This document shows positions 202 to 62,213 of a stretch of 64,000 bases of DNA, piece after piece. Every line of letters starts with the position of its first letter. Position 1 is the stretch's first letter. Made by a program: the position numbers and the translations under genes. The notes below the pieces were generated by a model. The model saw nothing but the letters and a program-made list of their open reading frames with translations, was not told the DNA's origin and made no database searches. This stretch comes from an uncultured Acidobacteriota bacterium (GTDB lineage Bacteria > Acidobacteriota > Vicinamibacteria > Vicinamibacterales > CAVVIG01), in assembly GCA_963821285.1 (NCBI GenBank), contig CAWGDD010000010.1, positions 530,715-594,714 of the forward strand, read 5' to 3'.

Positions 202-263
202 AACGCAAAACGGAAAACGCAAAACGGCAACCGGGCCCGTTCCTGCGTCTTCCGCCTTGCGTT
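202..263 (-). terminator. word-hairpin W1, likely Rho-independent terminator on the minus strand
   Basis: Left arm 202-227 is AACGCAAAACGG repeated. Right arm 237-263 is CCGTTCCTGCGTCTTCCGCCTTGCGTT. I count 21 Watson-Crick pairs plus 5 A-C mismatches on the plus strand. All 5 become G-U wobbles in minus-strand RNA, giving a 26-bp helix with one bulge and a 9-nt loop. The helix is followed on the minus strand by UUUUCUUUUGG (reverse complement of 181-201). Confidence 0.65.
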
Positions 264-285
264 CAGCGGTTCGACGTGCCGCGTC

Positions 286-1124
286 TTACGGTACTTCTTG
301 CGCAGGTGGCCGTAGAGCAGCTCTTCGGAGAACTCCACGCACTTGAACTCCAGCAGCTGGAAGTTCTTCTCGGTGTGCTTGTAGAGCACCGTGCTGAGCT
401 TCCAGGGACGCGTGAAGAGCTTCGCGTCTTCGATGGTCGCCTCGTAGTTGATGTGATCCGCGTCGGCCAGCGTGTAGCGCTCGACGACGTGGGTCGTGTC
501 GGTGGTGTAGTTGCCGGCGCGGTCGAGCCACGCGTTGCCGTTGAGGCCGGTGACGTCGACGACCAGCGTGTCGCCTTCCCACTTGCCGTTCGACCAGCCC
601 ATCCAGCTGTCCACCGGCGCTTCGGTCGGCTTGCCCATGTTCACCACGCGGTTGGCCGACGCATATTCGTAGGCGAACAGGATGTTCTGGGGGCTCTGGA
701 CGATCTGGAAGGGAAACGGCATGTACGTCGCGCGCGGGAGGCCCGGCATGTAGCACTTGACCTCGGGGTCGAGCGTCAGGCGGTTGCGTGCGTTGTCGTC
801 GCGCTTGGTCTTCGCGGCCGGCGTGTACGGGATATCGCCGCCCTCGACGATGCCCTGGCCGGCCGGGATCGCGCCGGTGGCGCCGAGCTGGAAGAACGGT
901 CCGGCCGACGCGCCGTGGTCCTCGAGATTCCAGTTCGAGTTGACCATGACCTGCCAGATGCCGTTCAAGTTCGGCTTGCCGTCCGCCGTGCGCGGCACGC
1001 GCGCGGCAGCAGCGCCGCCGCGGCCCGCGGGCGCCTGGCCTCGCAGCACGGCAGGCACGACCGCCAGCGACACGACTGCCGCGACGCCGGCCGCAATCAA
1101 CACACCTCTGAACGAATTTCGCAT
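286..1124 (-). CDS. secreted protein, uncharacterised S-family paralog 1 (no in-frame stop codon)
   Basis: ATG at 1122-1124 is preceded by GAGGAG. Signal peptide MRNSFRGVLIAAGVAAVVSLAVVPAVLRGQA. The core GKWEGDTLVVDVTGLNGNAWLDRAGNYTTDTTHVVERY...EDAKLFTRPW is shared with 1903-2919 and four more ORFs. The frame runs through hairpin W1 to the window edge. TAA at 286-288 is one frame off, so an indel near 289-300 is suspected. Confidence 0.7.
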
Positions 1125-1362
1125 GGACCGATCTCCTCGTGAAACCCGCTCCGGCCGACCCACGACATGGGTCGAACTCGGGCGGCCCTTACTTAATTCA
1201 TGTCTGAACCAGGATTTCGAACAAACTTCTACCCGAAGTCGAGCGCCGGTGTCAACGTGGAGAGGTCATTGAGAACGCGGAGGGAAAGGGTATGGGATGC
1301 CCTGGAGCGCATACTCCGAGGCATCCCATGCCGACAGTCTCAGACAACAGAGCGGCGGGCCG

Positions 1363-1776
1363 CTATTCCTTGCGTTCGTCCGGCGCCCCAGTGCCCTGGG
1401 AGCCGACGAAGAGCTTCTTGCCGTCCTTGAAGGTGATATCGCGGCCGTTGGCGCGGTTGGCGCCGTCTTTCGCCTGATAGCCTTCGATGACGATCTCGGT
1501 GCCCGGCAGCAGCGAGTTCTTCGTCCAGCCGCGGCGGAGGAGTGCGTTCGGCGCGCCGGCTTCCACCATCCAGTTCGTGACGGTGCCGTCGGTGTTCTTC
1601 ACGTCGATGTAGATCCACGCGTGCGGATTGATCCACTCCATCTTCGTCACCGTTCCCGAAAGCTTGACGGGTCTCTTGGCGTCAAACTCGGCGGCGAAGG
1701 AGTGGTGGGCGAGTACCGGCACGGCCGCCAGGAGCAAACCGAGACCGGCAATCATCAAGGACAACTTCGTTCGCAT
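1363..1776 (-). CDS. small secreted protein, DUF6152-like (family name from memory), copy 1
   Basis: ORF-track ORF of 137 aa. Signal peptide ends ...VPVLA, followed by HHSFAAEFD. It shares W(I/T)NPH and a beta-rich body with 17382-17768 and 54208-54609. Confidence 0.75.
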   Translation of the reverse strand: MRTKLSLMIAGLGLLLAAVPVLAHHSFAAEFDAKRPVKLSGTVTKMEWINPHAWIYIDVKNTDGTVTNWMVEAGAPNALLRRGWTKNSLLPGTEIVIEGYQAKDGANRANGRDITFKDGKKLFVGSQGTGAPDERKE

Positions 1777-2919: not shown

Positions 2920-4880
<1,961 letters not shown>

Positions 4881-4894: not shown

Positions 4895-5063
4895 GTCCTT
4901 GGGCCTTGGGCCTTGGTTCCCGGTCCGTTCTTGGTCCCAGGTCCGTTCGCGGGGCCGTCGTCCTGTTTCCGAGCAAGGACGCATCTACGCAGGACCGCAG
5001 ACCGCCGCACCAGGGACCAGGAACAAAGGACGGACCAAGAACAAGGGGCCAAGACCCAAGGAC
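4895..5063. repeat. word-hairpin W2 (GTCCTTGG / GTTCTTGGTCC word family)
   Basis: The left arm is GTCCTTGGGCCTTGGGCCTTGGTTCCCGGTCCGTTCTTGGTCCCAGGTCC. The right arm is GGGACCAGGAACAAAGGACGGACCAAGAACAAGGGGCCAAGACCCAAGGAC, its imperfect reverse complement. The centre is about 60 nt. It lies between the lipoprotein stop (5092) and the synthetase start (4880). Confidence 0.75.
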
Positions 5064-5091
5064 TCGCGGCTATGCCGAAACGAAAGACGCG

Positions 5092-5574
5092 TTACGGGGG
5101 CGTGAGGCACCCGCGCGGCGTCGTCTGCCAGGGCAGGTCCTGAAGCACGGTGCGACCCTGCCCGGCCGTGCGCACGACGTCGGCCGAGCTGGCGTTGCAG
5201 CGATCGCGGTTGGGACCCGACAGATGGACACGGAACCTTTCACCGGGATTGACCTGCTTCGGCGTCACTTCGAAGGACGTCGCAAGCGGCGACAACGGCA
5301 CCTCGTGCCGCTCCGGAACGACATCTCTGAACACGTCTGTCGAACACAGCATCGGCGCAGCCGTCAGACCGCGAAAGCTGGCGCAGCGCGCCTGGTCATC
5401 GAGGAGGGTGAGTTGAGAGGCGTTCCACACGTCCACGGACATCGTGCCATCGGTCGCGAAGAACCCGGGGTTGACGACGACGACGAGAGTGACGGAATCC
5501 CCCGGTGATGGAGCCACCACCAGGAGGCAGGCGCTCATCGCCATCGTCACGCCCAGGAGCATGAGCACGCGCAT
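5092..5574 (-). CDS. hypothetical lipoprotein
   Basis: The internal start MRVLMLLGVTMAMSAC gives a lipobox-like signal. No recognisable domain. Confidence 0.55.
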   Translation of the reverse strand: MRVLMLLGVTMAMSACLLVVAPSPGDSVTLVVVVNPGFFATDGTMSVDVWNASQLTLLDDQARCASFRGLTAAPMLCSTDVFRDVVPERHEVPLSPLATSFEVTPKQVNPGERFRVHLSGPNRDRCNASSADVVRTAGQGRTVLQDLPWQTTPRGCLTPP

Positions 5575-14075: not shown

Positions 14076-16317
14076 TCAGCGGTGCGTATGCTCGGCTTCG
14101 GTCAGCGAGCCGCCAAACCGGATCAGGCCGCCGTCGGCCTCGGCGACGCGCGCGATCTTCACGCGGGTCGCCGCCCACGCGAGCGCGCCGGTTTCCGGTT
14201 CGACGACCGGCGCCAGCACCTTCACCGGGTTGCTGCCGCGGCCGCTCGCGTAGCGCGTGAACGTCTCGTGCCCCTGCCCGACCGGCATCGCGAGCACATC
14301 GGGCGCGATACCGGGCGAATGCAGGGCCGGCGCGCGCACCGTGCCGTGCGCCGACGCGATCTCGACGACGTCGCCGTCGCCGATGCCGAGCCGGCCCGCG
14401 GTCTGCGGGTTGATCTCCACCCAGACGCTCCACATCGCCGTGGAGATCGGATCCGGCATCTCCTGCAGCCACGGCAGGTGCGCCAGGGATCCGTCGAGAA
14501 ACGCCTGCGACGCGTACGGCAGGAAATGAAACGGATACTGCGCCGCGTCGCCATCGAACACCGCCTCGCGCACGATCTCTCTTCCCCGTCTGCCCTCTGC
14601 CCTCAGCCTTTGCCCTCTGCCCTTCGCCCTTGCCCTCTGCCCTCTGCCCTGTGCCTTCGCACCCACCCCTGCTTCGTCGCCGTCGCCCAGGCCTCCTCGC
14701 CGATCGTGGCCTGCAGCATCTGATCGAACGACGCCCACGGCAGTTCCGGCTTGATGGGCGACGCGAGTTTCTTCGCGACGTCGAGCAGCACGTCCGGCGT
14801 GGCGCGCGTCTGGTAGAGCGGCTTCATCGCGGGCCCGGCGACCGTCGTCACCGCCACGGTCGCGCCCGACTCGGGCCGCGCGTCGGTCCACGACTCGAGG
14901 AACGCGTGGTCCGGCAGGATGAGGTCGGCGAGCACGCTCGTGTCGTCCACGAAGCTGGCGAAGCTGACGACGAACGGGACCTTGAGGATGGCGTCCTTGA
15001 CGCGCCAGCCGGGCGGCGTGGCGTAGACCGGGTTGACGCGGTCGACGAGCAGCACCTGCACGGGCGGCTTGTCGGCGGCGAGTATGTCCGCGGCGACGGC
15101 GCGCAGCGTCTTCCCGGTGCCGCGAGCCGGCGGAGTCGGCCTGCGGCGTGAACGAGAGACCGCCCGGTGCGCCCACGCTGCCGAGCAGCGCGTTCAGCGC
15201 GTTGACGGCGAGCGCCTGAAACAGACCGTTGGCCTGCGCGAGCGGCGCGCCGCCGATGATGGCCACCGATGGCCGCTGTTCGGCCAGCTCGCGCGCAAGC
15301 CGCTCGACCCGCGCGGCCTTGACGCTCGTCTTCTGCTCGACGGCCTGCGGCGTGTAGTCGGCCAGGCCTCTGGACCACCCGTCGACGAGCGCGCCCGCAC
15401 GGCCGGCCGCATCCGCGGGCCGCAGCTTGTCGCGCATGATCACGTGGGCAAGTCCGAGCGCCAGCACGGCCTCGGTGCCGGGACGAATCGCGACCCATTC
15501 ATCCGCGCTCGCGCCGGTCAGGGACATGCGGGGTTCCACCTGGACGAACGCTCCGCGAATGCCCGGCCGGCCCTGCCGCATGCGACCGTAGGCGCCGGTG
15601 TGCGCGACGGGGCTGTTCCAGGTGCCGAGGAAATCTGCGCCGAACGAGATCGCGTAACGCGAGGCCGCGAGATCGAACGTCGGCAGCTGCGCCGCGGCCG
15701 AAGCTCATCTCGTTCGCGCGCCGCAGGACGTCGTCGCTGAACAGCTCGAACGTCGTGGCCGGCGGCGCGCCGAAACGCGCGAGGAAAAGCGCCGTCAGGT
15801 CGTGGCGCGCGCTCGAACCGGGCCGCGTCCAGCACGCGAGCGCCGGCTGCGTCTTCGACGCGGCGAGCGCGTCGAGCTGGCCGACCAGTTCCGCAATGGC
15901 GGCGTCCCACGTGATCGGCTGGAAATCGTTGCTGCCTCGTGCGCCGCGGCGCTTGAGCGGCTCCTTGATCCGGTCGGGGTGATACGCGATCTGGATGGCC
16001 GCCTGGCCGCGCGGGCAGAGCGTCCCCTGGTTCACCGGGTGCGTCGGGTTGCCCTCGAGCTTCTTCGCCAGGCTCATCGTCACGACGCCGGCCTGACCGC
16101 CGCGCACCGTGTCCACGTCGCCCTGCATCACACGGATGGTCGTCCCGCATCCGGCGTTGCACTGCGGGCACACGCCGTTCTTGATCTCCGCGAGACCCGG
16201 CGTCAGATCCTCGTCGGGCACGAACCGGATGAGCTCGTGCTCCGGGTTGCCGCAGCTCGCGAGCGTGACTGCGCCGCCCGTCACCGCCGTCAGCTTGATG
16301 AAGTTTCGACGATCCAT
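14076..16317 (-). CDS. actB: alternative complex III subunit ActB1 (Tat-exported molybdopterin-oxidoreductase-like), three frame changes
   Basis: Tat signal MDRRNFIKLTAVTGGAVTLASCG. The N-terminal Cys cluster is CPQCNAGCG. Homologous sequence continues across three frames (ORFs 15499..16914, 14076..15581, 14603..15061), with shifts near 15693, 15118 and 14660. Confidence 0.8.
14589..14657. repeat. tandem heptamer repeat W9 (TCTGCCC-like, about 10 units) inside the actB1 coding region
   Basis: The run is TCTGCCC TCTGCCC TCAGCCTT TGCCCTC TGCCCTT CGCCCTT GCCCTC TGCCCTC TGCCCTG TGCC. Period 7 is not a multiple of 3. It is translated as Gly/Arg/Ala-rich filler (GAKAQGRGQRARAKGRGQRLRAEGRRG). A reading-frame change maps to its edge. 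Confidence 0.7.
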
Positions 16318-16331
16318 GGTCTGCGGACGCC

Positions 16332-46274: not shown

Positions 46275-46297
46275 GTAGTGCAGGCCTTCAGGCCTGC
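46275..46297 (+). repeat. REP element, consensus copy
   Basis: GTAGTGCAGGCCTTCAGGCCTGC, immediately left of W3. A degenerate remnant (GCGGCCTGAGCCTACTAC) lies at 46121-46138. Confidence 0.8.
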
Positions 46298-46304: not shown

Positions 46305-46445
46305 GGTCCCAAGTCCTTGGGCCTTTGTTCCTGGTCCGTTCTTGGTCCATGGTCCACGCCTGTCCGCGCATCCGTGCACGAGTTGCGGGAACCGTGCGGA
46401 CCACGGACGGGATGGACCAAGAACCAAGAACCAAGGACCAAGGAC
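46305..46445. repeat. word-hairpin W3, same word family as W2
   Basis: The left arm is GGTCCCAAGTCCTTGGGCCTTTGTTCCTGGTCCGTTCTTGGTCCATGGTCC. The right arm is GGACCACGGACGGGATGGACCAAGAACCAAGAACCAAGGACCAAGGAC. The right arm abuts the stop codon of the receptor gene (46445-46447). Confidence 0.75.
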
Positions 46446-49043
46446 TAGAACGACACCCCCAGCTGCACCTGATACGCGCGCGGCGTGACGAAGTGCGTCC
46501 CGCTGAACGTGGAGAGGAAGTTGTACAGCGACTCCGTGTTCGTCAGGTTGACGACACTGAAGCGGAGACGCAGTTTGGCCTTGTCCGTGTGCAGCAGGTT
46601 GTCTGCGCCCATGCCGAGGTCGAACAGGTGGCGCGGCGCCACGCGCGACGGGTTGTTAAGCGGATCGCCTGTTCCCGCTGCCGGGACGACGAGCCGGGTC
46701 GCGGAAATGGCGCTCGGGTCGCAACTCGTGAAACCGGCACCGGGCGTCGCCGCCACGCCGCCGCACGAGACGCCGGCGGCGGCCTGCTGCGCCGGGGTCA
46801 GGGTCAACAGATCGAGCACGTCGCCGATCGAGCTGGCCGACCAGTCCTGAATCGTAGCGCCAGTTCAGCGCCGTCCAGATGCCGCGCTGCTTGTTGACCA
46901 CATACTGCAGGTTCGTCGTCAGCGTTGAACTTCTGATCGTGATCGATCCGGAACGAGCAGCCGGCATCCTCACAGGGCGGCTCGAGCAGGACACCGCCCA
47001 CGCCCGGAGGGAAATAGATGGCGTTGGTATGCGCCATCACGGCGAACGCGCTGAACCCGTGGTGCTCGAGCAGGTTGATGCGGCCGGTGAAGCCGTCGAT
47101 CGTCGAGTGATCCCATGCGACCGGGAACACGATCGGCGTGTCGAAGAGCACGCTGAAGTCGTAGCCGTTGCTGGTGTGCTTCGTGAAGTAGCCGACGTCT
47201 GCGACGAGCCATCCGCCGAACGCCTGCTGCGCGCCGAACTCGACCTGGTCGCGCGTCCCGGGCAGTGGCGGGTTGGCGGTGGTGCCGGTGAGCGCCTCGG
47301 CGCCGACGCCACTCGACAGCAGCAGGCCCTCGTTGTACGGCGTCTCCATGGTCCGGCCGTACGACGCCCGCAGGACGGTGCCGCCGGCCCCGACGGCGTA
47401 CGACACGCCGATGCGCGGCTGCAGTTCGGTCGCCGTCGTCAGCCCGTCGTAGTGATCGAGCCGCAGGCCGAGCTTGATCGTCGCGTTTCCGGCTTTGATC
47501 TCGTCCTGCGCGTACACCGCCTGCTGCTTGATGGTCGCGGCCTGGTTGTAGACGAACGGCGATCCGCCGCGGGTCAGATCGAAGGCCAGCTGGTTCGGGC
47601 TGAAGGCGGGGTTGACGGTCAGGTCGCCGGCGCACTGAACCGGGCTCGTGAGCGCCGTGTCGGTGGACGGGGTGCCGTCGGGGGCGAGGCACGGCGAGTT
47701 GAAAGCCGGATCGGTGAAACCGAGTCCGAAGTTCTCATTGAGCTTCGTGGCGCTGACTGTGCCGCCGAACTTCAGATTCTGGCGCCCGGCCGTGTACGCA
47801 ACATCCGACTTGAACCCGACGTTCCGGAGCGTGCGATCCTGGCTGACGCTGCCCGGCTGATCCGCGAACGGATCCGGGCTGGGCGAGTAGGTCACGTGAT
47901 CCTGCCGGACGTACACGTTCGCGGTGAACAGCGTCTTGAGGCCGATCACCTGGGAAAAACCGGGCGCGATGTTGAACGTGTTGATGTCCTGATGCTGCGC
48001 CTGGCCGAGCGCGTCGGCGTCGAGGCTGTTCGGCACGTCGAAAGTCCGACCGCGCCGCCTGGACGTTGAGGTGCAGCGTGCCGGCGTCGCCCGGTGCGGA
48101 CGTCGAGACGATCGAAGAACGAGACCTGGTGCCCCGAATCGTGCAGCGCCTGAAACTCAGGCGGGTCGAGGAAGCGGTCGGTCCGCATGCCGTTCAGCGA
48201 CACGAAGTTGCCGACTCTGTGCGATCCGTCTCCCATGTTGACCTCGGCGGTCGGGCTGGCGAACGAACCGTAGCCAAACGAAAAGCTGCCGGTCGGCTTC
48301 GGCTGGTCGAGACCCGATTTGGTCACGATGTGGACGACGAGGCTCGTCTTGTCGCCGTACTCCGCCGGAGCCACGCCCGTGATGATCTCCATCGACTGCA
48401 CGGCGTCCTGCGAAATCTGGTTCGAGTACACGCGGCTCTGCTGGTCGGTGACCGGCTGGTTGTCGATCGAAAACTGCGTCTGCGCGTGATCGCCGACCGG
48501 ATGGAAGAATCCGTTCGAGTCGGACACCACGCCGGGCGACGCGAGCGTGATCACCTGATTCAGGCCGGCCGACGGCTCCAGGACGAGCTTCGCGATCCGG
48601 CTTTGATCGAGATCCGTATGGGCGCTGGGATCGCGCTCCACCAGGTCTTCCACATGGCCGACGACGTCGATTGACGTCGCGGCACCGGCGAGCGAGAGCG
48701 TCAGGTCGAGCGTGATCGGCACGGCGCTCCGGACGTCGACGTCCCGGGCCAGCCGGTTGAAGCCCTGTGCCTCGACGGTCACGTGATACGAGTTGGGCGG
48801 CAGGTTGCTGAACACGTACCGGCCGGAGGCGTCGGTCGTCGCGGTTCTGGTGAAACCGCTGACCGCGTTGGCAATTTTCACCTCGACCGCCTGCATCACG
48901 CCGCCGGTCGGATCCTTCACGGTGCCCTGCAGCGTGCCTGCGCCGCCGAGGCCCTGCGCCCGGACATGGGTTGTTCCAAGAGCTCCCGCACATATCAACA
49001 GAATGCCAAGGCTCGCGCCCGGGCGTCGAATCAAATACACCAC
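46445..49043 (-). CDS. TonB-dependent receptor with carboxypeptidase-regulatory-like domain, 3 frameshifts (near 48098, 46923, 46830)
   Basis: Probable GTG start at 49043 (AGGAGG 6 nt upstream). GTLQGTVKDPTGGVMQAVEVKI, plug (IEIITGVAPAEYGDK-like) and C-terminal YQVQLGVSF. The body continues across ORFs 47946..49067, 46804..48036, 46656..46994 and 46445..46819. Confidence 0.8.
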
Positions 49044-49067
49044 GACAAACCTCCTGTTCGATTGCAT

Positions 49068-49121
49068 GTAGTGCAGGCCTTCAGGCCTGCCTGATCAGGC
49101 GGACCTGAAGGTCCGCACTAC
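49068..49121. repeat. REP doublet in inverted orientation (REPIN-like)
   Basis: GTAGTGCAGGCCTTCAGGCCTGC (49068-49090), an 8-nt spacer, then GCGGACCTGAAGGTCCGCACTAC (49099-49121). Confidence 0.8.
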
Positions 49122-49137
49122 ACCCGAATAGATCGCG

Positions 49138-49558: not shown

Positions 49559-52025
49559 TCATGGCGCGGCCGCTGCGCCTCCCAGCATCACCGACACACC
49601 AGTGCGAATCGTAATCGGCAGCGCGGGGAAACCCGCGGCGGCCTGATAGTCCTGGTTCAGCAGGTTCTCGATGCTCGCATACCACCTGAGACGCGGGTGC
49701 ACGCGGTACGATCCGCTCAGATCGATCTTCGCGTAACCCTTGTCCATGTCCTGGTTGGGCAGCAGCAGGCTGTTGCCGAAGAACCCGTCGGTCAGCAGCG
49801 TGCTGTCGTCCTGCTTGCCGGAGAAGTAGCCGGCGACGGCGATCTGTCCCGGGCCCCTGGAGTAGGACACCAGCAGGTTGCCGGAATTCGCCGGCCGGCG
49901 GAACGGACGGTTGCCGACCAGCGGCGAGAACGCGCCGATCGGAATTCCTGGAAACTTGTCATTCATTGACGCCGGCGCGCCCAAGGCTTCCCTGACCTCC
50001 GCGTCGAGATACGTGTAGGAGGCGGACACACGCCAGTTCCTTGCGAACACGGCATCGGCCGACAGCTCCAGCCCATCGCCCGTCGTCGACTGCGAGTTGA
50101 CGTAGGCCCCAAACGGGGTCGCATTCGCGACGGCCGGCGGCACCCCGGCCTGCACGAGCCCGTTCTTGCCGAGGAACTCGAGCAAATCCTCGAACGTGTT
50201 GTGGAAATACGTGGCCCTCACCCGCAGCTGCCCGCGCACGAGTCCCTGCTCGACGCCGACGTCGAGATTCCCCGCGCGCTCTGGCCCGACGGGCCCGACA
50301 CCGAGCGCCGCCGCCTGCGCCGGCGGCAGAAGCGGCAGCAGCGAGTTCAATTCCTGGTAGATCGACGGCGCCTTGATGCCCGTGCCGGCGTTGAACGTCA
50401 GCTTTGTGTCGTTGGGACGTGCGGCCGTCGAGTTCTGCAGATAGAACGCGAGCGACACCCGCGGCGATACGGCGCTGCCGTAGACCGCGTGGTGCTCGTA
50501 ACCAACGCCCGCGCTCGCGAACAGGCGGCCGGCCGTGACGCGCGCCTCCCCGAAGAGGCCGCCGTTGTTGCGCGCGCTCTCCGTCTTCGGACTCGACGCG
50601 CCGCCCGACTGAGTGTATCCCTGTTCGTTCTCGAATCGACCGCCGCCCGACACCGTCAGCAGCGATCCGGCACGGTAGCTGACCTGACCGGACAGCGCGT
50701 TGCGCGTGGTGTGGCCGTCGAACAGCGACGGGTACTGCCCGCCGTAGTCGAGAATCGCCTGGCCGGTCACGGCGTACCCGTTCGCGCCCGTGATGGTCAC
50801 CGTGTCGCCGAGGTAGTTGGCGCCGAACCCGAAGGGGTCGAACGGCTTGCCCGTCGGCGACGGGTTCGTGTAGTGCGTGTTCTGCGCCATGGACGCGAAC
50901 CGGACCGTGCTCTGCCATCGGTCGTTGATCTGCGATTGCGCCGCGACGGCGCCGTACGTGAAGTCGTCCTGTTGCTTCGAATCGTCGGGGACCACGTAGA
51001 AGAGAATCGCGTTCGGGCTGCCGTAGTTCGTGTCGGCGCGCCGGAGCGTGCCGCTCAGGTCGGTTCCGTGGCCAAGGGCGGCACTGAACCGGCCCGCGTA
51101 CGTCCCGTTCGTGAACCCGTTGTTCGGGACGTCGTTGTCGGTCGTGAAGTAGCTGTAGTCGGAGAAGTAATCGAAACGGCCCGATGCGCCTGCGATCGCG
51201 ACGTCGTTCTTCATCGTGCCCAGGTTCCCGCCGTCAATCGCGTACGAGAACTCCGGGATTCGCGTGCGGCCGCGGCGCGTCGTGATGCTGACGACGCCCG
51301 ACAGGCTGTCCGAGCCGTAGATCACGCTGTTCGCCTCGCGAAGGACTTCGACGGAGTCGACTCCCGTGACGGACACAGACGAGAAATCGAAGCCGCCGCC
51401 GATGTCGTTGGCGGCCACGCCGTCGATGAGCACCTTGTTGAAATTCGACGCGCCGCCGCGCACGAACAGCGAGGTCACGGCGCCGCGCTGCCCCGCCTGA
51501 ACGACCTGCGCTCCCGGGACCAGCCGCAGCGCCTCGAGCACGTCCGGCTTGGCCAGCGCGTCGAGCGTGGCCGCGTCGATCACGGTCACCGATGCCGCGA
51601 CCTGCGACGGCAGAACGATCGTGGCTGCCGCGGTCACGGACACATTCTGCTCGAGCGGACCGATCGGCAGGGCGAGCTCGATGTTTACGCGCCCGGACCC
51701 GGAGAAAAAGATTGGATCCGACGTACGGGTTTGAAACCCGGGCGAACTCGCTTCGATCCGATACCGGCCCGCGCTCAACGCGTCGAAGGCGAAAGTCGCC
51801 GTCGGCGTTCGAGGAGGCTTCCTTCACGGCCTTCCCGTCGAGCAGCAGCCTGACGGTCGCGCCGCTCACGCGCGCGCCGAGGGGATCGACCACGGTTCCG
51901 GCAACGGTACCGCCGGTCTGCGCCCACGACGCCGGCGTCACCAGCAGCACCAGCGCTGTCAGCGCGAGACACACGTGCCGGACGGAAACGGCAAGGGGAT
52001 TGAACGTACGAGGAGTGGACAGCAT
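49559..52025 (-). CDS. TonB-dependent receptor with carboxypeptidase-regulatory-like domain, one frameshift near 51790
   Basis: Start at the internal Met of ORF 51234..52163 (MLSTPRTFNPLAVSVRHVCLALTALVLLVTPASWAQ). GTVVDPLGARVSGATVRL. After the shift: AFDALSAGRYRIEASSPGF. Plug motifs VEVLREANSVIYGSDSLSGVVSITT. Confidence 0.8.
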
Positions 52026-52087
52026 GCTTCCTGTTCTCCGCAGAAAGTCGAACGCGTTGATGTCTGGGTAGGTCTCCTGGCTCGGAG

Positions 52088-52106
52088 GTGCAGACCGTTG
52101 GTCTGC
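52088..52106 (+). repeat. REP-like degenerate hairpin
   Basis: GTGCAGACCGTTGGTCTGC has a 7-bp stem and resembles the REP stem GTGCAGGCC...GGCCTGC, but it lacks a clean GTAG head. Confidence 0.35.
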
Positions 52107-52241
52107 GGCTGCTTCACCTTCCCCGGCCGATGGCCGAGTGGTCGTTCGAAGCAGCGTCCTCACTCACAGTGGCGGGACCGCGCCGGCTTTTCACCGGACT
52201 TCCCTGTTATGCCCTCGTGGGCACCCAGACAGGGATCAGCT

Positions 52242-52568
52242 TTATACCATCTCTACTCCGATGGCGTCCAGCGCGCGCTCGGCGAGCTGCCACGCCGCGA
52301 ACACCTGGCGGCCGTACACCGATGGCCGGTACCACCGGCGCGGTCGCCCCGTCGCACCCTGGATCATGGGCTCGACGTGGGACTCGACGTAGCCCTTGCT
52401 CTGCATGCGCTGGAGCGTGATGTAGACAGTCCCCCGCTTGAGCGAACCGCCCGAACGGTCGGCCAGCCGAAGCGGGAATTGCTCCCCGTCCTGAAGCAGA
52501 CTCAGAATCAGGAGCTCGGTCTCCGCCAGCTGCGGCATCCGCGAGGTGAAATACCGTCTCGATGACAT
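52242..52568 (-). CDS. PadR-family transcriptional regulator
   Basis: 108 aa. LLILSLLQDGEQFPLRLADRSGGSLKRGTVYITLQRMQSKGYVES...RRWYRPSVYG is the winged-helix PadR pattern. Confidence 0.7.
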   Translation of the reverse strand: MSSRRYFTSRMPQLAETELLILSLLQDGEQFPLRLADRSGGSLKRGTVYITLQRMQSKGYVESHVEPMIQGATGRPRRWYRPSVYGRQVFAAWQLAERALDAIGVEMV

Positions 52569-52627: not shown

Positions 52628-52671
52628 GGTCACGAGTGCGTCAGTGACACGTGAGTGACATCCGGTTGACC
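52628..52671. promoter_or_regulatory. cluster of GGTCA / GTGAC half-sites upstream of the PadR gene
   Basis: GGTCACGAGTGCGTCAGTGACACGTGAGTGACATCCGGTTGACC lies 60-100 nt upstream of the PadR start. It shares TCAGTGACA with the sites at 46178-46200 and 54687-54723. Confidence 0.4.
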
Positions 52672-54057: not shown

Positions 54058-54095
54058 GGGCAGGCAGGCAGGAATCCAACCTGCCCAACCTGCCC
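54058..54095. repeat. small word-hairpin W4b (GGCAGG x3 / CCTGCC x2)
   Basis: The sequence is GGGCAGGCAGGCAGG-AATCCAA-CCTGCCCAACCTGCCC. It lies 40-80 nt upstream of the cytochrome start at 54016. Confidence 0.55.
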
Positions 54096-54115
54096 CCACA
54101 ACGACCGTCGAATTT

Positions 54116-54199
54116 GGTCATCTGGTCATCTAGTCATCTGGTCATCAATTGGATCATTTCGAAGAAATGACCAGATGACCAAATGACCAGATGACCAGA
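54116..54199. repeat. word-hairpin W4 (GGTCATCT x4-5 / AGATGACC x4)
   Basis: GGTCATCTGGTCATCTAGTCATCTGGTCATCAATTGGATCATTTC-GAA-GAAATGACCAGATGACCAAATGACCAGATGACCAGA. AT-rich relative to the window. It starts about 9 nt after the stop of the DUF6152 gene (54208). Confidence 0.8.
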
Positions 54200-54207
54200 T
54201 TCACTCT

Positions 54208-54686: not shown

Positions 54687-54723
54687 GCGGTCAAATTGCG
54701 GTCAGTGACAGGTCTGTGACCGC
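54687..54723. promoter_or_regulatory. candidate operator: GCGGTCA direct repeat plus inverted TGACCGC, containing GGTCAGTGAC
   Basis: GCGGTCAAATTGCGGTCAGTGACAGGTCTGTGACCGC lies 78-115 nt upstream of the DUF6152 copy 3 start. Confidence 0.45.
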
Positions 54724-56669: not shown

Positions 56670-56716
56670 GTCCTCCTGACGGTTGCGGGGGCGATTCTAG
56701 CAAATTCCAACACCAC

Positions 56717-56831
56717 AAGGTTCCAGAGGTTCCGGAGGTTCCGGAGGTTCCGGAGGTTCCAGGGGTTCAGGTTCGGCGAACCTTGGAACCGGAACCCGTG
56801 GAACTTTGGAACTCTGGAACTTTGGAACCTT
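56717..56831. repeat. word-hairpin W5 (GGAGGTTCC x4 / GGAAC-containing 8-mers)
   Basis: AAGGTTCCAGAGGTTCCGGAGGTTCCGGAGGTTCCGGAGGTTCCAGGGGTTCAGGTTCG-GCG-AACCTTGGAACCGGAACCCGTGGAACTTTGGAACTCTGGAACTTTGGAACCTT. It fills the divergent intergenic region between the cytochrome (56669) and the esterase (56846). Confidence 0.8.
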
Positions 56832-56845
56832 GCTATATTGCCCCG

Positions 56846-58378
56846 ATGCGCCACGCCACCGCCTCAGCCCTCGCCGTCGCATTCATCGCCCTGGGTCACA
56901 CGGCGAATGCTGCGCCCTGCGAGAGTCTGTCCTCCCTTTCCCTGCCCAACGTGACGATCCTCATGGCGACGCCGGTGGCGGCGGGCGCGTTCACGGCGCC
57001 GGGGCGTGGAGGAGCAATCCAGCAGTTCGCGGGCTTGCCGGCGTTCTGCCGTGTGCAGGCGAGCCTCAAGCCGACGAGTGATTCCGATATCAGGATGGAG
57101 CTGTGGCTGCCGCTCGACTCGCCTGGCGGAGGCGGGTGGAACGGCAAGTTCCGGGGCACCGGAAACGGCGGGCTCGGCGGCGGCACCGGCGCGAACCCGA
57201 ATCAGCTGGCGGGCGGCGTTCGCGCGGGCTACGCGACGGCGGGTCATAACACCGGGCACGAGGGCGACTCGAGTTACGCGCTGGACCATCCCGAGAAGAT
57301 CAAGGACTTCGGCTACCGGTCCACGCACGAGATGACCGTGGCATCCAAGGCGCTGATCAAGGCCTTCTACGGCCGCGACGCGCGCCTGTCGTACATGGCG
57401 GAAGGCGGCGGCGGCACGATCGCGGCGCTCAGCTCCGCGCAGCGCTATCCCGAGGACTACGACATCATCGCGGTGACCGGCATGTCGTCGCACCTCACGC
57501 GCCACACGTTCGCGCAGATGTGGGTGTGGCAGGCCACGCACAAAGACGCCGCGAGTTTCATCCCGCCCGATAAATATCCGGTGCTCCACGACGCGGCGCT
57601 TGCCGCCTGCGACACGCTCGACGGGTTGAAGGACGGCATCATCGGCGACGTGCCGCGCTGCACGTTCGACCCCGCGGTGACGCTCTGCAATGGGGCCGAC
57701 TCACCGACATGCCTGACGCCGCCGCAGGTCGAGGCCGCACGAAAGATCTACGGGGGACCGAAGAATCCCCGTACGGGCGAGGAGATCTACTCGCCCCTCT
57801 ATCCGGGCAGCGAGCTGGGCTGGGGGCAACTGGCCGGCGGCGACCAGCCCCTCGGCATCCCGGTCGAGTTCTTCAAGTACTACGTCCTGCGGGATCCGTC
57901 GTGGGACTACAAGGCACGACCCATTAACTTCGACGGCGACGTGACGGCGTCGAACCGTCCGGAGATCCAGCCGGTCAACGCCGTGGACCCGGACCTGGGC
58001 AGGTTTTTCGCGCGAGGCGGAAAACTCCTCCTGGTGGACGGCTGGAGCGACACCGCCGTGCCGCCGAAAGTCGCGATCAACTACTACAACGCGGTGGTGA
58101 AGAAGCTCGGCGCGAAGACCGTCAGCGCGTCGATGCGATTCTTCATGGTCCCCGGGATGGGCCATGGGCCGGGCACCGCCGGCGCCGAAAACTTCAACTT
58201 CGACGCCCTGGGCCTCATCGAGCGGTGGAAAGAAGACGGCCAGGCGCCGGACCAGCTCGTCATTTCTCACTTTAGGAACGGCGTCGAGGTCGGCAAGCGC
58301 CTGGTGTGCCGATACCCCCAAATCGCCATGTATAAAGGTGGCGATCCGGAGGCTCCTGCAAGCTACACTTGCCGGTAG
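56846..58378 (+). CDS. tannase/feruloyl-esterase-family alpha/beta hydrolase
   Basis: Start at the internal Met (MRHATASALAVAFIALGHTANA). PAFCRVQASLKPTSDSDIRMELWLP...WNGKFRGTGNGG and later Cys pairs are typical of this family. Intact. Confidence 0.8.
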   Translation: MRHATASALAVAFIALGHTANAAPCESLSSLSLPNVTILMATPVAAGAFTAPGRGGAIQQFAGLPAFCRVQASLKPTSDSDIRMELWLPLDSPGGGGWNGKFRGTGNGGLGGGTGANPNQLAGGVRAGYATAGHNTGHEGDSSYALDHPEKIKDFGYRSTHEMTVASKALIKAFYGRDARLSYMAEGGGGTIAALSSAQRYPEDYDIIAVTGMSSHLTRHTFAQMWVWQATHKDAASFIPPDKYPVLHDAALAACDTLDGLKDGIIGDVPRCTFDPAVTLCNGADSPTCLTPPQVEAARKIYGGPKNPRTGEEIYSPLYPGSELGWGQLAGGDQPLGIPVEFFKYYVLRDPSWDYKARPINFDGDVTASNRPEIQPVNAVDPDLGRFFARGGKLLLVDGWSDTAVPPKVAINYYNAVVKKLGAKTVSASMRFFMVPGMGHGPGTAGAENFNFDALGLIERWKEDGQAPDQLVISHFRNGVEVGKRLVCRYPQIAMYKGGDPEAPASYTCR

Positions 58379-58477
58379 CGTGCTGAGGACAATTCCCCAG
58401 TGCGCCGTGGCCGAGCGCCATTTTTCGGCCTGAAATTGGCCGATCGAGTTGGCAACGAAGTTGCGACAGGTGAGGCT

Positions 58478-59104
58478 ATGACTACCAGATTTGCGACGGT
58501 TGCTGCGCTCACGCTGGCCGTCTTCGTGTGCAGTGTCGGCTTTGCCGACGCGGGCCAGCGGCACCAGGGAGGCGGGGGGTCGCCCGCGGTCGGACGCGCC
58601 GTCCCACGCGGCGGCGGCGGTCAGGGCGGCGGGGGCGGTCGACCCGGAGGCGGCGGTGGCGGCTACCCGTCATCTCCCGGACGCTACTACGGCGGCGGCT
58701 ACTATCGGCCGTACTACGGATACTACGGCCGGTACGGATATCCGTACTACGGCGGCTACTACCCCTACGGGTACGGTTACTACGGCCTGGGCTACGGGTT
58801 TAGTGTCGGGTTCGGCTTTGGCTACGGCTACGGTTACGGCTACCCCGGCTATGCATACCCCTACTACGGCGGCTACGTCAATTCGTACGGCGGCGTGAAG
58901 ATCGAGAACGCCCCGCCCGACGCGGCGGTCTACGCCGACGGCTACTACGTCGGCACAGTGGACGACTTCGACGGGAGCTTCCAGAAGCTCAACCTGGAAC
59001 CCGGCGCACACCACATCGAGGTCATGCGGCCGGGCGGCGCGCCACCGGCGTCTGTGGACGTCAACATCCGTCCGGGACAAACGGTGACCTTCCGTGCGAA
59101 CTAG
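58478..59104 (+). CDS. secreted Gly/Tyr-rich low-complexity protein with C-terminal PEGA-like domain
   Basis: Signal MTTRFATVAALTLAVFVCSVGFADA. About 110 aa are almost only G, Y, P and R (GYYRPYYGYYGRYGYPYYGGYYPYGYGYYGLGYGF...GYGYGYGYPGYAYPYYGG). Then VKIENAPPDAAVYADGYYVGT...LEPGAHHIEV. Confidence 0.7.
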   Translation: MTTRFATVAALTLAVFVCSVGFADAGQRHQGGGGSPAVGRAVPRGGGGQGGGGGRPGGGGGGYPSSPGRYYGGGYYRPYYGYYGRYGYPYYGGYYPYGYGYYGLGYGFSVGFGFGYGYGYGYPGYAYPYYGGYVNSYGGVKIENAPPDAAVYADGYYVGTVDDFDGSFQKLNLEPGAHHIEVMRPGGAPPASVDVNIRPGQTVTFRAN

Positions 59105-59106
59105 GG

Positions 59107-59205
59107 AAGAAGAAAGTTCAAAGTAGAAAGTTCAAAGTGGAAAAGTCAGTGCGCAGCGACTTTTCCACTTACTTTTCTACTTTGTACTTTTGACTTTGAA
59201 CTTTC
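59107..59205 (+). terminator. word-hairpin W6 (AGAAAGTTCAAAGT words), likely Rho-independent terminator
   Basis: The perfect core is GTGGAAAAGTC (59137-59147) paired with GACTTTTCCAC (59158-59168), with a 10-nt loop. Imperfect word-repeat extensions flank it. It is followed by TTACTTTTCTACTTTGTACTTTTG. It starts right after the stop at 59104. Confidence 0.65.
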
Positions 59206-59218
59206 GTACAATCGTCCT

Positions 59219-60805
59219 GTGCGTCGCGCCGTTCTGGCGTCTGGTCTTCTTCTCGCCGCCTTCCTTTCCCTTTCCGATTCGCTTCTGAGTCAGCCGGCCG
59301 CGCTAACCGTTGTTTCAAAAGATGGGCGCCGCACGCTGGCCACGACGGTTCAGAACGAACAGGATTTCGTCGCGCTCGACGACCTCGCGTCGATGTTCCA
59401 GCTCACCGTGCGCGAAGACGCGCTGGGCGTCACCGTGGCCTACAAGGGCCGGACGGTCGTCCTCACGGTCGATCAGCCGCTGGCGTCGGTGTCGGGACGT
59501 CTCGTCTCGCTGCCCGCGACGCCCATCCGCAACCCGGCGCGCCGCTGGCTGGTGCCGGCCGAGTTCATCAGCCGCGCGCTCGCGCTCATCTACGATGCCA
59601 AGCTCGAGCTTCGCCGCCCGGCGCGGCTGCTCCTCGTCGGCGACATCCGGGCGCCGCGCGTCCAGATGCGCTACGAGGCAGTGGGCACCGGTGCCCGCCT
59701 GACGATCGACGCCGCGCCTCGTGCCGACAACGCGGTCTCGCAGGACAACGACCGCATCGCCATCAAGTTCGACGCCGACCTGCTGGACATCCCGAACAAC
59801 GGCCTCGCGCTGCCGGCGCAAAGCGCGGCGCAGGGCGTCATCCAGGCCGTGCGCCTCGCCGACGCGACGACGATCGCCGTCGATCTCGGCCCGCGATTCT
59901 CCTCGTTCAGGGCAGCGTCGCAGCAGCTCGACAACGCGACGCGGCTGGTCATCGACCTCACCGCGGCCACGGTGGCCGAAGCCGCCCCTGCTCCGGCGCC
60001 CGGCGCGACTTCGACCACGGGGGCCGCGGCGGCCGCGGGGGCCGCGCCGCCACCGGCCGCGCCGGCTCCGCCGCCTGATCTGAGCGCGCTCACGCAGACG
60101 CCCAGCTCCGTCAGGACGATCGTCATCGATCCGGGCCACGGCGGCGACGACGAGGGCGTGAAGGGGCCGGCGGGAACGAAAGAGAAGGACCTGACGCTCG
60201 CGCTGGCCCGCCGCGTCAAGGCCGCCATCGAGTCGCGCCTCGGCATCCGCGTGCTGCTGACGCGCGACGACGACCGCCGCGTGTCGATCGACGATCGGAC
60301 GTCGATGGCCAACAACAACAAGTCGGATCTGTTCATCAGCCTGCACGCCAACGCGTCGTTCCGTCCCTCGCTCGCCGGCGGATCGATCTACTCCGCGGCG
60401 TTCGAGCCCGGCGCGGCGCAGGCGGCGCGCGCCCTGGCGCCCGAGCGCGTGCCGGCCTTCGGCGGCGGATCGCGCGACATCGAATTCGTCCCGTGGGACT
60501 TCGCGCAGTCGGCGCACATCGAGGAATCAGACGCCCTGGCGAGGCTGCTCCAGGCGCAGCTGCACGACCGCATTCCGCTCGCGGCCCGTCCGATCGATTC
60601 GGCGCCGCTGCGCGTGCTCGAATCGGCGAACATGCCGGCGGTCCTCATCGAGATCGGGTACCTGACGAACCCGGAGCAGGAAACGCAGCTCGCGGGCGCC
60701 GAGTTTCAGAACCCGTTCGTGCAGGGCGTGCTCGACGCCATCATCCGGTTCCGCGACGCGCTCGACGAGAAGCGGCGGCCGGCAGCGGGCGGGGCGGGAC
60801 GGTGA
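59219..60805 (+). CDS. N-acetylmuramoyl-L-alanine amidase (AMIN domain plus Amidase_3)
   Basis: 528 aa. IVIDPGHGGDDEGVKGPAGTKEKDLTLALARRV...DLFISLHANAS...PAVLIEIGYLTNPEQE. Intact. Confidence 0.85.
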   Translation: MRRAVLASGLLLAAFLSLSDSLLSQPAALTVVSKDGRRTLATTVQNEQDFVALDDLASMFQLTVREDALGVTVAYKGRTVVLTVDQPLASVSGRLVSLPATPIRNPARRWLVPAEFISRALALIYDAKLELRRPARLLLVGDIRAPRVQMRYEAVGTGARLTIDAAPRADNAVSQDNDRIAIKFDADLLDIPNNGLALPAQSAAQGVIQAVRLADATTIAVDLGPRFSSFRAASQQLDNATRLVIDLTAATVAEAAPAPAPGATSTTGAAAAAGAAPPPAAPAPPPDLSALTQTPSSVRTIVIDPGHGGDDEGVKGPAGTKEKDLTLALARRVKAAIESRLGIRVLLTRDDDRRVSIDDRTSMANNNKSDLFISLHANASFRPSLAGGSIYSAAFEPGAAQAARALAPERVPAFGGGSRDIEFVPWDFAQSAHIEESDALARLLQAQLHDRIPLAARPIDSAPLRVLESANMPAVLIEIGYLTNPEQETQLAGAEFQNPFVQGVLDAIIRFRDALDEKRRPAAGGAGR

Positions 60806-61372
60806 CCGCGCGCCGCGTGCTGGGCTTCGGCGCGATGGCGGTCGCCCTGGCGGCGATCGCGTGGGCGCTGTTCGTCGGCCTGCCGCGATGCGTCGCGCCC
60901 GCGGGCGCAGCCGCCTCCCCCGCCGGCGCCGGCCGCGGCAGCGCCCGGACGCAAGATCAAGGCGCGCCTCTTCTACGTCTCCGAAGACGGCACGCGGCTG
61001 ACCGGCGTCGAGCGCGACGTCGCGTACGGCGACGGCGCGGCCGCCCAGGCGCAGGAGATCATCAAGGCGCAGCTCGCGCCCGCCGACGCCCCGCTCGTCT
61101 CCGCCGTCCCCGCGGGCACCACGCTGCGCGCGCTGTATCTGACCGCGAACGGCGCCGCGTACGTCGACCTCAGCCGCGACATCGTGACCGCGCACCCGGG
61201 CGGCTCGCTCGACGAGCTGCTGACGATCTACACCATCGTCAACGCGCTGACGATGAACCTGCCGGCGGTGACGTCGGTGCAGGTGCTGGTGGACGGGAAG
61301 GAGGTCGACACGCTCGCCGGCCACGTCGACCTGCGGCGTCCGCTGACGAAGAATGTGTCCTGGGTGGAATAG
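60802..61372 (+). CDS. GerMN-domain membrane-anchored protein, frameshift near 60870-60935
   Basis: GTG overlaps the amidase stop (GTGA). TM helix VLGFGAMAVALAAIAWALFVG. After the shift: KIKARLFYVSEDGTRLTGVERDVAYG...LLTIYTIVNALTMNLPAVTSVQVLVDGKEVDTLAGHVDL. Confidence 0.65.
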
Positions 61373-61381
61373 AATCGTCTG

Positions 61382-62109
61382 ATGCGCTCCGACCAGCGTC
61401 CGGCGAACCAGCTCCGCGCCACCGTCATCACACCAGACTTCCTCGAACACGCCGAAGGGTCGGTGCTCATCGAGGCCGGCCGCACGCGCGTCATCTGCAC
61501 GGCCAGCGTCGAGGACCGCGTGCCGCCGTTCCTGCGCAACAGCGGCAAGGGCTGGGTGACGGCCGAGTACGGCATGCTGCCGCGCGCGACCAGCACGCGC
61601 ACGCAGCGCGAGGCGACGTCCGGCAAGGTCGGCGGCCGCACGCAGGAGATCCAGCGGCTCATCGGCCGTTCGCTGCGGGCGGTCACGAACCTGCCCGCCC
61701 TGGGCGAGCGGACCATCTGGATCGACTGCGACGTCATCCAGGCGGACGGCGGGACGCGCACGGCGTCGATCACGGGCGCGTTCGTCGCCCTGGCGCTCGC
61801 GCTCGGCACGCTGCGCGAACGCGACGTGCTGCGCACGATTCCGCTCACCGACTACGTCGCGGCCATCAGCGTCGGCATCGTGGACGGCGAGCCGCTGCTC
61901 GACCTGGCGTACGACGGACGATTCGCGCGCCGAAGTGGACATGAACATCGTGAAGACCGGCGACGGCCGGTTCATCGAGGTCCAGGGCACCGCCGAAGCC
62001 ATCCCGTTCGGGCGCGACAGCCTCGATCGACCTGCTCGATCTCGCCGACGTCGGCATCCGCCAGCTCATCGACAAGCAGCGGGCCATCGTCGGGCACCTG
62101 GTCAAGTAA
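61382..62109 (+). CDS. rph: ribonuclease PH, two frameshifts (near 61918 and 62025)
   Basis: [44 protein letters not shown]...[17 protein letters not shown]...[16 protein letters not shown]...[23 protein letters not shown]. The C-terminal parts [26 protein letters not shown] and [25 protein letters not shown] lie in other frames. Stop at 62107-62109. Confidence 0.85.
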
Positions 62110-62213
62110 CGACGACGTCCAACGCAGAGCACGCGGAGCACGCAGAGTGTTCTGTCAGCCGACCATGCTGACTACTCTGCGTGCTCGGCGTGCTCTGCGT
62201 TGTACGTTGTCGT
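62109..62213. repeat. word-hairpin W7 (GCAGAGCACGC words), 40-bp near-perfect stem between convergent rph and rdgB
   Basis: The left arm ACGACGACGTCCAACGCAGAGCACGCGGAGCACGCAGAGT (62109-62148) matches the reverse complement of 62174-62213, ACGACAACGTACAACGCAGAGCACGCCGAGCACGCAGAGT, with 3 mismatches in 40. The loop is 25 nt. Confidence 0.85.

Follow-up and report, generated by a model that had tools for sequence, protein, structure and literature searches.

Hairpins with tandem-repeat arms at gene boundaries in an uncultured Acidobacteriota bacterium

Features of the hairpins in the window

The analysed stretch of DNA (the window) comprises 64,000 nt of contig CAWGDD010000010.1 (positions 530,715 to 594,714 of the forward strand, GenBank assembly GCA_963821285.1) from an uncultured member of the Vicinamibacterales (Acidobacteriota). 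Its genes were mapped from codon-position G+C and translations. Eight hairpins (W1–W7 and W4b), in which a short word is repeated in tandem on one arm and its reverse complement on the other, are reported here together with a ninth, one-armed array (Table 1). A preliminary description, made from the sequence alone, had placed eight such hairpins between genes or at gene termini. All eight were read directly and are as described there, and all are intergenic or abut gene ends.

Both the intergenic position and the two-armed form apply to eight of the nine arrays in the window. W1, W2, W3, W4b/W4, and W6 are located between co-directional genes, W7 between convergent and W5 between divergent genes, and W3, W4, W6, and W7 are 0–5 nt from a stop codon. 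W2 is flanked by the end of a minus-strand gene (5092) and, on the other side, by an acyl-CoA synthetase gene that starts at ~4877. W3 and the stop codon (46445-7) of a gene for a TonB-dependent receptor overlap, and 10 nt beyond W3 there is a GTAG-tagged repetitive extragenic palindrome (REP). W5 lies between the starts of a cytochrome c gene (56669) and a tannase gene (56847), and W6 is 2 nt past the stop codon of a PEGA-protein gene and 14 nt ahead of the GTG of an amidase gene; their right arms adjoin conserved TATATT and TACAAT boxes, respectively. The first base of W7 directly follows the true rph stop codon (62106-8), and its right arm (62172-62213, minus strand) forms the last ~13 codons of rdgB (..NAEHAEHAE*), an (AEH)n tail. 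The gene reads into the arm because the 9-nt unit equals three codons, and a similar rdgB tail is found in the related locus L083 (..NAEHAETAE*). The one-armed array falls within an open reading frame (ORF) for a molybdopterin oxidoreductase, in the stretch that separates the PF00384 domain from PF01568, and the coding frame shifts across it.

In an inverted-repeat search of the window, W2, W7, W6, and W4 took the first four places by length, with W3 close behind. Tandem Repeats Finder (TRF) detected units on both arms: 7 nt in W1 and W2/W3, 8 nt in W4, 9 nt in W7, and 14 nt (2 × 7) in W6; in W5 the unit was 9 nt on the left arm and 8 nt on the right. In W2 and W3, GGTCC-type units are mixed irregularly along the arms. 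W4b is the weakest of the eight, and its arm periods are unequal (GGCA x3 vs CCAACCTGC x2). Most hairpins have a G+C content below that of the window (0.667), for example 0.41 in W4 and 0.36 in W6.

RNA folding was compared with 200 dinucleotide shuffles per hairpin. The z-scores were −5.7 (W1), −7.5 (W2), −7.0 (W3), −4.4 (W4b), −11.2 (W4), −6.3 (W5), −7.8 (W6), and −13.4 (W7), and for each hairpin the real folding energy was reached by none of the shuffles. Arms built of tandem units pair in several registers, and a detector of multi-register inverted repeats (at least three registers, arm of at least 20 nt per cluster) was therefore written and used as a signature of periodic arms. It found five clusters in the window and none in each of 30 dinucleotide shuffles. 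The PEGA-domain protein (58400-59104, plus strand) has a long Gly/Tyr-rich low-complexity region arising from coding tandem repeats, and the coding repeats of a PEGA-type protein gave false matches of the detector in locus L014.

Table 1. Tandem-unit hairpins and the one-armed array of the window, and alleles at the W5 site of the window and related loci
Feature	Position (nt)	Strand	Description
W1	200..266	-	7/14-nt units AAAACGC/AAAACGG + complement
W2	4895..5063	-	169-nt hairpin; arms of GGTCC/GGTTC-type units; unique ~70-nt centre
W3	46305..46446	-	Second W2-family copy
W4b	54058..54095	-	Short G/C-rich hairpin, GGCAGG units vs CCAACCTGC
W4	54110..54202	-	GGTCATCT x4 per arm; begins 5 nt past DUF6152 stop
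W5	56716..56832	.	AGGTTCCGG x5.7 vs GGAACYTTG x7
W6	59107..59209	+	AAAGTTC/AAAGTAG units, 36% G+C
W7	62109..62213	.	GCAGAGCAC x3 per arm, between convergent rph and rdgB
One-armed heptamer array	14589..14655	-	GGGCAGA x10 on minus (TCTGCCC x10 on plus), without inverted partner
W5 site, window			AGGTTCCGG x5.7
W5 site, L087			Unit of the window, AGGTTCCGG, ~two 9-nt units fewer in one arm
W5 site, L081			Short GGTTCA hairpin
W5 site, L082			One-armed GGGTTCA x4
W5 site, L083			GGTTCAA/GGTTCAC x8 vs CGTGAAC x3
W5 site, L088			GGTTCGAG x9

Turnover at orthologous sites and dispersal of the units

Relatives were found by a protein search with the amidase next to W6 (91, 86, 85, and 73-74% identity), and their contigs were retrieved. 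Since synteny is conserved among them, four sites (W4, W5, W6, and W7) were comparable. Occupancy was kept in most relatives at all of these except W4: W4b was present down to 86% amidase identity and W4 in the window, L081, and L082, and L083 had an unrelated CCTGCC-rich stretch in place of W4. At the W5 site, the flanks (gcgattcta... and ...accttgYtatatt) were conserved and the array between them varied. AAAGTTC-type hairpins occupied the W6 site in the window, L082, L086, L088, and L089. In L087, the left GGGTTCA array of this site still pairs with the right ACTTTGAAC via G.U pairs, and L081 and L083-85 had a GTAG-tagged REPIN (a REP doublet) instead of a hairpin (L081 9915-10015, L083 9895-10015). 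At the W7 site, GCAGAGCAC-type units of varying copy number were found in most relatives. L081 had GCTGAGG/CCCTCAG x4 in place of the inner units, with the outer CTCTGCGTT..TACGT kept, and L088 carried a REPIN (12860-12915). More distant loci had other units in the place of W7 (GGGCGGGAA in L003, where the window has GCAGAGCAC, and TTGGGAG in L011), and one-armed arrays stood at the same place in L013, L025, and L037. Hairpins at the W5, W6, and W7 sites persisted to relatives of 57-73% amidase identity. A site by a stop or start codon thus tends to stay filled, though its occupant may be a GTAG-REPIN or a one-armed array in place of a hairpin with tandem arms.

Strain-level variation was seen among L083 (7520-7680), L084 (1-148), and L085 (1-158), contigs from different samples with 100% identical amidase proteins. 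At the W5-site array, L084 is without exactly two of the 7-nt units present in L083 and L085, i.e., the array is a variable number tandem repeat, and a difference of exactly two units at identical amidase is a signature of slipped-strand mispairing. Arrays gain and lose whole units after arrival, and one unit variant later replaces another. The question of whether the words expand, contract, or are replaced, raised in the preliminary description, is answered to the extent that both unit number and unit turn over.

Both arms of a hairpin change together. The fraction of left-arm 7-mers having a reverse complement in their own right arm was compared with the fraction having one in the right arm of an ortholog, and the former was higher at all three sites (W5, 0.24 vs 0.13; W6, 0.37 vs 0.23; W7, 0.22 vs 0.09). 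RNAalifold, run on rough alignments, detected compensatory changes in 5 of 25 pairs in W6 and 3 of 17 in W7, and the one-sided changes in W6 were mostly A-U to G-U. The co-change could result from selection for pairing or from template switching within the hairpin, which these data do not separate. Template switching inside a hairpin, quasipalindrome correction, is a process of E. coli.

Outside the orthologous sites, the units behave as dispersed families. The arms of W2 and W3 align with ~88% identity over 45 nt, irregular order of the unit variants included, and their centres differ; the words that these two were said to share are thus those of homologous copies. The W4 16-mer GGTCATCTGGTCATCT was used to scan metagenomes and gave at least 120 matches, the first 80 of which were inspected. 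A 16-mer is expected by chance in a collection of such size, and about half of the first 80 were low-GC contigs having two units only. Another 32 of the first 80 were soil contigs (GC 0.61-0.70) with three or more units, mostly with an inverted arm. When two window proteins flanking W4 were used in tblastn, a match was obtained in one of the 32 contigs, and 31 had no DUF6152 or lipoprotein neighbour; the copies are therefore in unrelated contexts. Copies of the W4 family share termini, GAAT(T/C)TGGTCATCTGG...CCAGATGACCA(A/G)ATTC, with GAAT(T/C)TGG...CCA(A/G)ATTC ends in about half of them, as well as the variant unit TAGTCATC and the loop-side GGTCATTGATTGG, and these shared derived details argue for copying rather than convergence. 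They may also overlap start codons.

In the retrieved DNA, W7-, W2/3-, and W4b-type words were likewise found at other loci and in other genomes. A 14.7-kb soil contig (L159) has W4-, W7-, and W2/3-type hairpins and further families within 8 kb, four or five families in all. In relatives, one unit may be present at several loci of a single genome, in both orientations and sometimes as long one-armed arrays; recurrent units include AGTTGGTG x14 in L005, AGCACCCT x19 and x14 in L018, and GTTGGGA at three loci in L011. In L176, radA is bordered by a one-armed array (GGTCATCT x10) on its stop side and by a two-armed hairpin of this unit on its start side (3556-3640, 5040-5175). The families have multiple copies, scattered among unrelated loci and genomes.

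With at least 31 non-orthologous copies of the W4 word and with W7- and W2/3-type words elsewhere, the words are not locus-specific, contrary to what had been supposed. That they are unrelated between loci holds for the exact words, of which the 64-kb window has six or more, and fails for their cores: W5 and W6 share RGTTC, W2/3 and W4 share GGTC, and W1 and W7 open with AACGCA. The contrast drawn in the preliminary description with families of REPs and of MITEs (miniature inverted-repeat transposable elements) was not sustained, as multi-copy W4 and the homologous W2/W3 make the class behave like these families. The proposal of a class defined by its architecture stands in that the structures are far above chance, sit at gene boundaries, and have units replaceable at orthologous sites. 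As side observations, a GGT(T)C core is common to many units (GGTCC, GGTCA, GGTTCC, AGTTCA), both in W2-W6 of the window and in L088 (7395-7565); GGTTCGA-type units resemble the tRNA T-arm, possibly by coincidence.

When species-representative genomes were scanned with the neighbouring amidase, the best match was only 57-64% identical (Vicinamibacterales, Acidobacteriota). In addition, 80 syntenic loci were retrieved with the amidase from Illumina (megahit, SPAdes) and long-read assemblies. Hairpins of this architecture were present in Illumina assemblies and in long-read metagenome-assembled genomes (MAGs) of Vicinamibacterales, Thermoanaerobaculia, and Sulfomarinibacteraceae. The Acidobacteriota loci had further units in the same architecture (CGTTCGAGA, CAGTCGC, ACGAAAA, GGGAGTT, ATTTCGG, and AATTCGG), the last of which was the one word at several loci in L056 and L057, both from other Acidobacteriota. 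With the detector set to a strict threshold, the window had a density of 6.3 per 100 kb and close relatives one of 7.4; other Acidobacteriota loci reached 2.7, and same-synteny loci from other phyla 0.2, the sole match in other phyla not being periodic.

Comparison with known repeats

The hairpins had not been recognised as a described element type. Precedents are found in the paired GGGAATC arrays of Xanthomonas and in the short tandemly repeated repetitive (STRR) hairpins of cyanobacteria, and our literature search found no description of such elements in Acidobacteria/Vicinamibacteria. The GGGAATC heptamer arrays of Xanthomonas campestris and X. citri are 89-93% intergenic and nearer the end of the upstream ORF; about 70-75 convergent pairs are able to form stem-loops, and positions are conserved while length and sequence vary among close relatives (Rehm et al. 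2015, PMC4692102). The Acidobacteriota elements resemble them in having short head-to-tail units (5-11 nt and most often 7 nt in this class of repeats; TRF periods of 7, 8, 9, and 14 in the window), in being intergenic and near the upstream ORF end, in forming inverted array pairs, and in keeping position with a variable number of units. They differ in phylum and in words: Xanthomonas has one dominant G-rich word, studied with a focus on G-quadruplexes, whereas the window has at least six, mostly not prone to form quadruplexes. The Acidobacteriota copies further share termini and loop-side motifs, and share slots with REPINs.

Cyanobacterial STRR heptamers form intergenic hairpins, e.g., between hupS and hupL and upstream of hoxW, and have been proposed to act in transcript stability or in the coupling of translation (PMC2670836). 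The Nostoc heptamer arrays, with the unit GAC(C/T)AAT, may overlap start codons (bioRxiv 10.1101/2022.06.06.494920), and in the one Nostoc genome surveyed few arrays were paired (PMC4692102). The elements described here are likewise intergenic tandem arrays, heptamers among them, that form hairpins, with start-codon overlap also among the W4-family copies. Their dispersal is seen in Acidobacteriota relatives and metagenomes, the host genome having been read over 64 kb only. The ATTGGTC units beside the W4-family loops are the reverse complement of the Nostoc unit (GACCAAT), a likeness that is possibly a coincidence. Unlike STRR repeats, which belong to heterocystous cyanobacteria and have few words per genome, they have an Acidobacteriota host and are, in the window, mostly two-armed. 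TAACTGA direct repeats are known from Beggiatoaceae, cyanobacteria, and Bacteroidetes, distant lineages that share the word with no known transfer mechanism (MacGregor 2015, PMC4679880). These too are intergenic heptamer arrays, and they abut start codons; in contrast to the mostly two-armed structures of the window, they are nearly all one-armed, consist of a single word strongly oriented to the downstream gene, and include one inverted case. According to work cited in that paper, heptamers are the commonest long simple sequence repeats (LSSRs) in prokaryotes, with polymerase slippage as a proposed cause, and the LSSR class is that of Mrazek 2007, as cited there (PMC4679880).

REPs and REPINs are GTAG- or CGTC-tagged, associated with REP-associated tyrosine transposases (RAYTs), and have units of 20-40 nt (PMC3733652). 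The window itself contains a GTAG-tagged REP (GTAGTGCAGGCCTTCAGGCCTGC) at 46266-46293 and a REPIN doublet at 49067-49122. The tandem-arm hairpins share with these that they are multi-copy intergenic palindromes by stop codons, form a large stem-loop, show no target duplication, and occupy the same slots in relatives. REPs have a conserved tag and no internal periodicity, whereas W1-W7 are 38-169 nt long with tandem-array arms and carry neither tag. Integron attC sites were rejected, with W7 matching R'' only (by eye) and with amidase, rph, and rdgB being syntenic housekeeping neighbours across the order. CRISPR was ruled out on core-site and context grounds. As canonical terminators, only W1 qualifies. 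At the gathering threshold, Rfam matched only a cobalamin riboswitch in the window (RF00174, 108.8 bits; 52050-52243, minus strand, upstream of a second TonB-dependent receptor gene at 49559-51823), and at E<=1 only sub-threshold matches to generic miRNA-precursor hairpins were added. The 9-mer motif GTCACTGAC alone was not enriched over shuffles. Near-palindromes of the type GGTCAGTGAC/GGTCACTGAC are present in two or three copies (46160-46199, 52630-52660, 54695-54720), each upstream of a minus-strand gene, and are possible operator sites.

A looser parallel exists in eukaryotes. The Foldback (FB) elements of Drosophila have long inverted arms of tandem short units in variable number. They are kilobase-scale and form a single sequence family with an associated transposase. 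The likeness, fold-back hairpin arms made from tandem units, is an analogy only, as the hairpins of the window are short, bacterial, and of several word families.

Origin, possible function, and meaning

The hairpins are best explained, with a probability of about 0.7, as dispersed families of short-unit tandem repeats arranged in inverted pairs, which change by slippage, have co-evolving arms, and occupy slots at gene boundaries. On this reading they are the Acidobacteriota counterpart of the "heptamer" intergenic repeats and not a wholly new kind. An RNA-level role is plausible, and a stem-loop at gene ends is our working guess for the function. On the minus (gene) strand, W1 forms a 27-bp stem with five G.U pairs followed by UUUUUUCUUUU, and folds at −40.5 kcal/mol compared with −28.3 on the plus strand. 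All six window hairpins with an unambiguous gene strand fold better, with more G.U pairs, on the sense strand, and so do ~13 of 15 Vicinamibacterales sites, many of which are orthologous and hence not independent. Of the two hairpins that had looked like intrinsic terminators, W1 fits this description and W6, without a U-tract, does not; a terminator consensus scan flagged none of W3-W7 save for a small sub-stem in W3. The TATATT (56833-56849) and TACAAT (59206-59221) boxes precede the ATG of the tannase gene and the GTG of the amidase gene by 6-8 nt and are conserved in all relatives, directly next to the right arms of W5 and W6. Their placement suggests that they are −10 boxes of leaderless mRNAs, and W5 and W6 may insulate such promoters.

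Several observations weigh against this picture. In co-directional contexts, the sense strand folds better in only ~2-3 of 8 independent W4-family copies, and strand asymmetry is mixed in other Acidobacteriota; the asymmetry may be inherited from a master copy, and the RNA-level role is therefore not taken as proven. Among the eight hairpins, a U-tract follows the stem only in W1, and no mRNA tail is expected at W5 between its divergent starts. No target-site duplication was seen at the junctions of 18 inspected W4-family copies, and no transposase tied to the copies was found at the inspected loci, where no RAYT search was made. The outermost "terminal repeats" of the W4 family have fuzzy ends and may be decayed units. 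Empty-site comparisons at W4 (L083) and W6 (REPIN alleles) gave no clean empty site, the whole spacer being replaced in these alleles, and hence no informative junctions. As 64 kb of this genome were covered, copy numbers per genome are extrapolated from what relatives and metagenomes show.

Errors of assembly or sequencing in low-complexity DNA can practically be dismissed as a source of the hairpins. Indel-type frameshifts do occur in the window: rph (61382-62108) needs two frame changes within ~150 nt, the TonB-dependent receptor gene at 46445-49094 is spread over three frames, and the molybdopterin-oxidoreductase gene (14076-16923) is in at least two. Such broken conserved genes suggest that a long-read assembly introduced indel errors, rather than that the genes are pseudogenes. 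Near-identical hairpins are nevertheless found at these hairpin sites in L083-L087, Illumina assemblies made independently from other samples, and dozens of further contigs have such hairpins, which refutes the artefact reading that the preliminary description had left to be checked. L081 looks fragmented in a similar way to the window. An open frame at 3-1265 (minus strand) runs from a secreted protein through W1 to a lipoprotein-like signal peptide (..FFLLVPAFMAAACSS) with no stop between; it probably represents two genes fused by an indel error and, given the frameshifts, is not to be trusted. Selection by the host for RNA stem-loops (terminators, protectors of mRNA 3' ends, or RNase III sites), with tandem units as the easiest mutational route to a longer stem, is a possible though less than even explanation. 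It draws on the hairpins directly past stop codons (W3, W4, W6, and W7), the U-tract of W1, the sense-strand advantage in the window, the A-U to G-U changes in W6, and the long persistence of the W5, W6, and W7 sites, where hairpins are interchangeable with REPINs. It fits poorly with the strand asymmetry of the independent W4-family copies, which does not follow the gene strand, with W5 between divergent genes, with the one-armed arrays in the same slots (L082, L013, L025, and L037), with the array located within a gene, and with the lack of a U-tract after most stems.

In a rival reading, which keeps the locus-specific words of the preliminary description, each hairpin was born in place from a local seed by slippage and arm-to-arm copying, with nothing mobile. 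Changes of unit at one site between close relatives, one-armed and "one-and-a-half-armed" intermediates, and the gain or loss of whole units between strains are what such a process would give. As the sole origin it is largely refuted, and improbable overall, given the non-orthologous W4-type copies with shared derived features, the homology of W2 and W3, the W7- and W2/3-type words at other loci, and the recurrence of one unit at several loci within single genomes of relatives. A small chance is also left to MITEs of the classical kind, remnants of insertion sequences shortened by deletion, whose tandem subterminal units would be bound by the DDE transposase that moves them. Multi-copy presence, a length of 60-170 nt, and inverted ends speak for this, as do the GAATYTGG...CCARATTC termini of about half of the W4-family copies, yet no inspected copy has a target-site duplication, one-armed arrays exist, and six or more families would each require their own enzyme. 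Nor was a longer element with the same ends found: among 210 loci (2.0 Mb), W4-type arrays formed two distant pairs, one in L176 (~1.5 kb apart), which encloses the housekeeping gene radA and no transposase, and one in L181 (467 nt apart), which was not looked at. The units could instead be iteron- or operator-like arrays bound by protein, or cruciform sites acting on supercoiling or replication, a reading to which we give similarly little credence. Short direct and inverted units recall iterons, W5 and W6 adjoin promoter-like −10 boxes, and Nostoc heptamer repeats near promoters altered the action of a regulator in reporters (bioRxiv 10.1101/2022.06.06.494920). There are many words per genome, however, a unit may be swapped at a fixed site with the neighbouring genes unchanged, and no link between word and gene function was found.

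Dispersed tandem-repeat families in inverted pairs thus remain the preferred explanation, and a possible course of events can be outlined. Two inverted arrays of one 7-9-nt unit in an intergenic region would allow a single strand of RNA or DNA to fold into a long hairpin. Spread without target duplication might proceed via a hairpin-recognising HUH/Y1-type enzyme, as for REPs, or by recombination between arrays, and the complementarity of the arms might be kept by template switching within the hairpin, by selection for pairing, or by the two together. Where transcription of the upstream gene runs into it, the element would end the mRNA as a stable 3' stem-loop, which would halt exonucleases, cause RNA polymerase to pause or terminate, and, at W5 and W6, shield the putative leaderless-type promoters that follow.

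These elements stand apart from known repeats in several ways: a genome has many unit families, the two-armed form dominates, there are signs of copying from one locus to another that is unrelated, units are replaced while the arms co-evolve, and there is exchange with REPINs. More speculatively, and with the odds clearly against it, a phylum-wide hairpin-repeat system may exist in which a single process, specific for structure and not for sequence, creates the many unit families, keeps them homogeneous, and spreads them; candidates may be a hairpin-recognising HUH/Y1-type enzyme or replication template switching within hairpins. Such a process would accept any hairpin with periodic arms, and the elements would compete with GTAG-REPINs for slots by stop codons. 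They would then be a new mobile class, "tandem-arm REPINs", and a natural system for the origin of STRR/heptamer repeats, unexplained since 1990.

For annotation of MAGs, the hairpins matter in that spurious ORFs arise from them and real ones are lengthened, as in the rdgB tail, and they are likely hotspots for long-read indel errors and for terminators or CRISPR-like repeats called in error. Cyanobacteria have for decades been known to carry intergenic repeats of the heptamer type, which were later recognised in Xanthomonas and Beggiatoaceae as well, with their origin, spread, and function unexplained. Soil Acidobacteriota, which are among the most abundant soil bacteria and densely sampled in metagenomes, carry a richer form of the phenomenon and lend themselves to comparative measurement of rates, junctions, and co-occurring genes.

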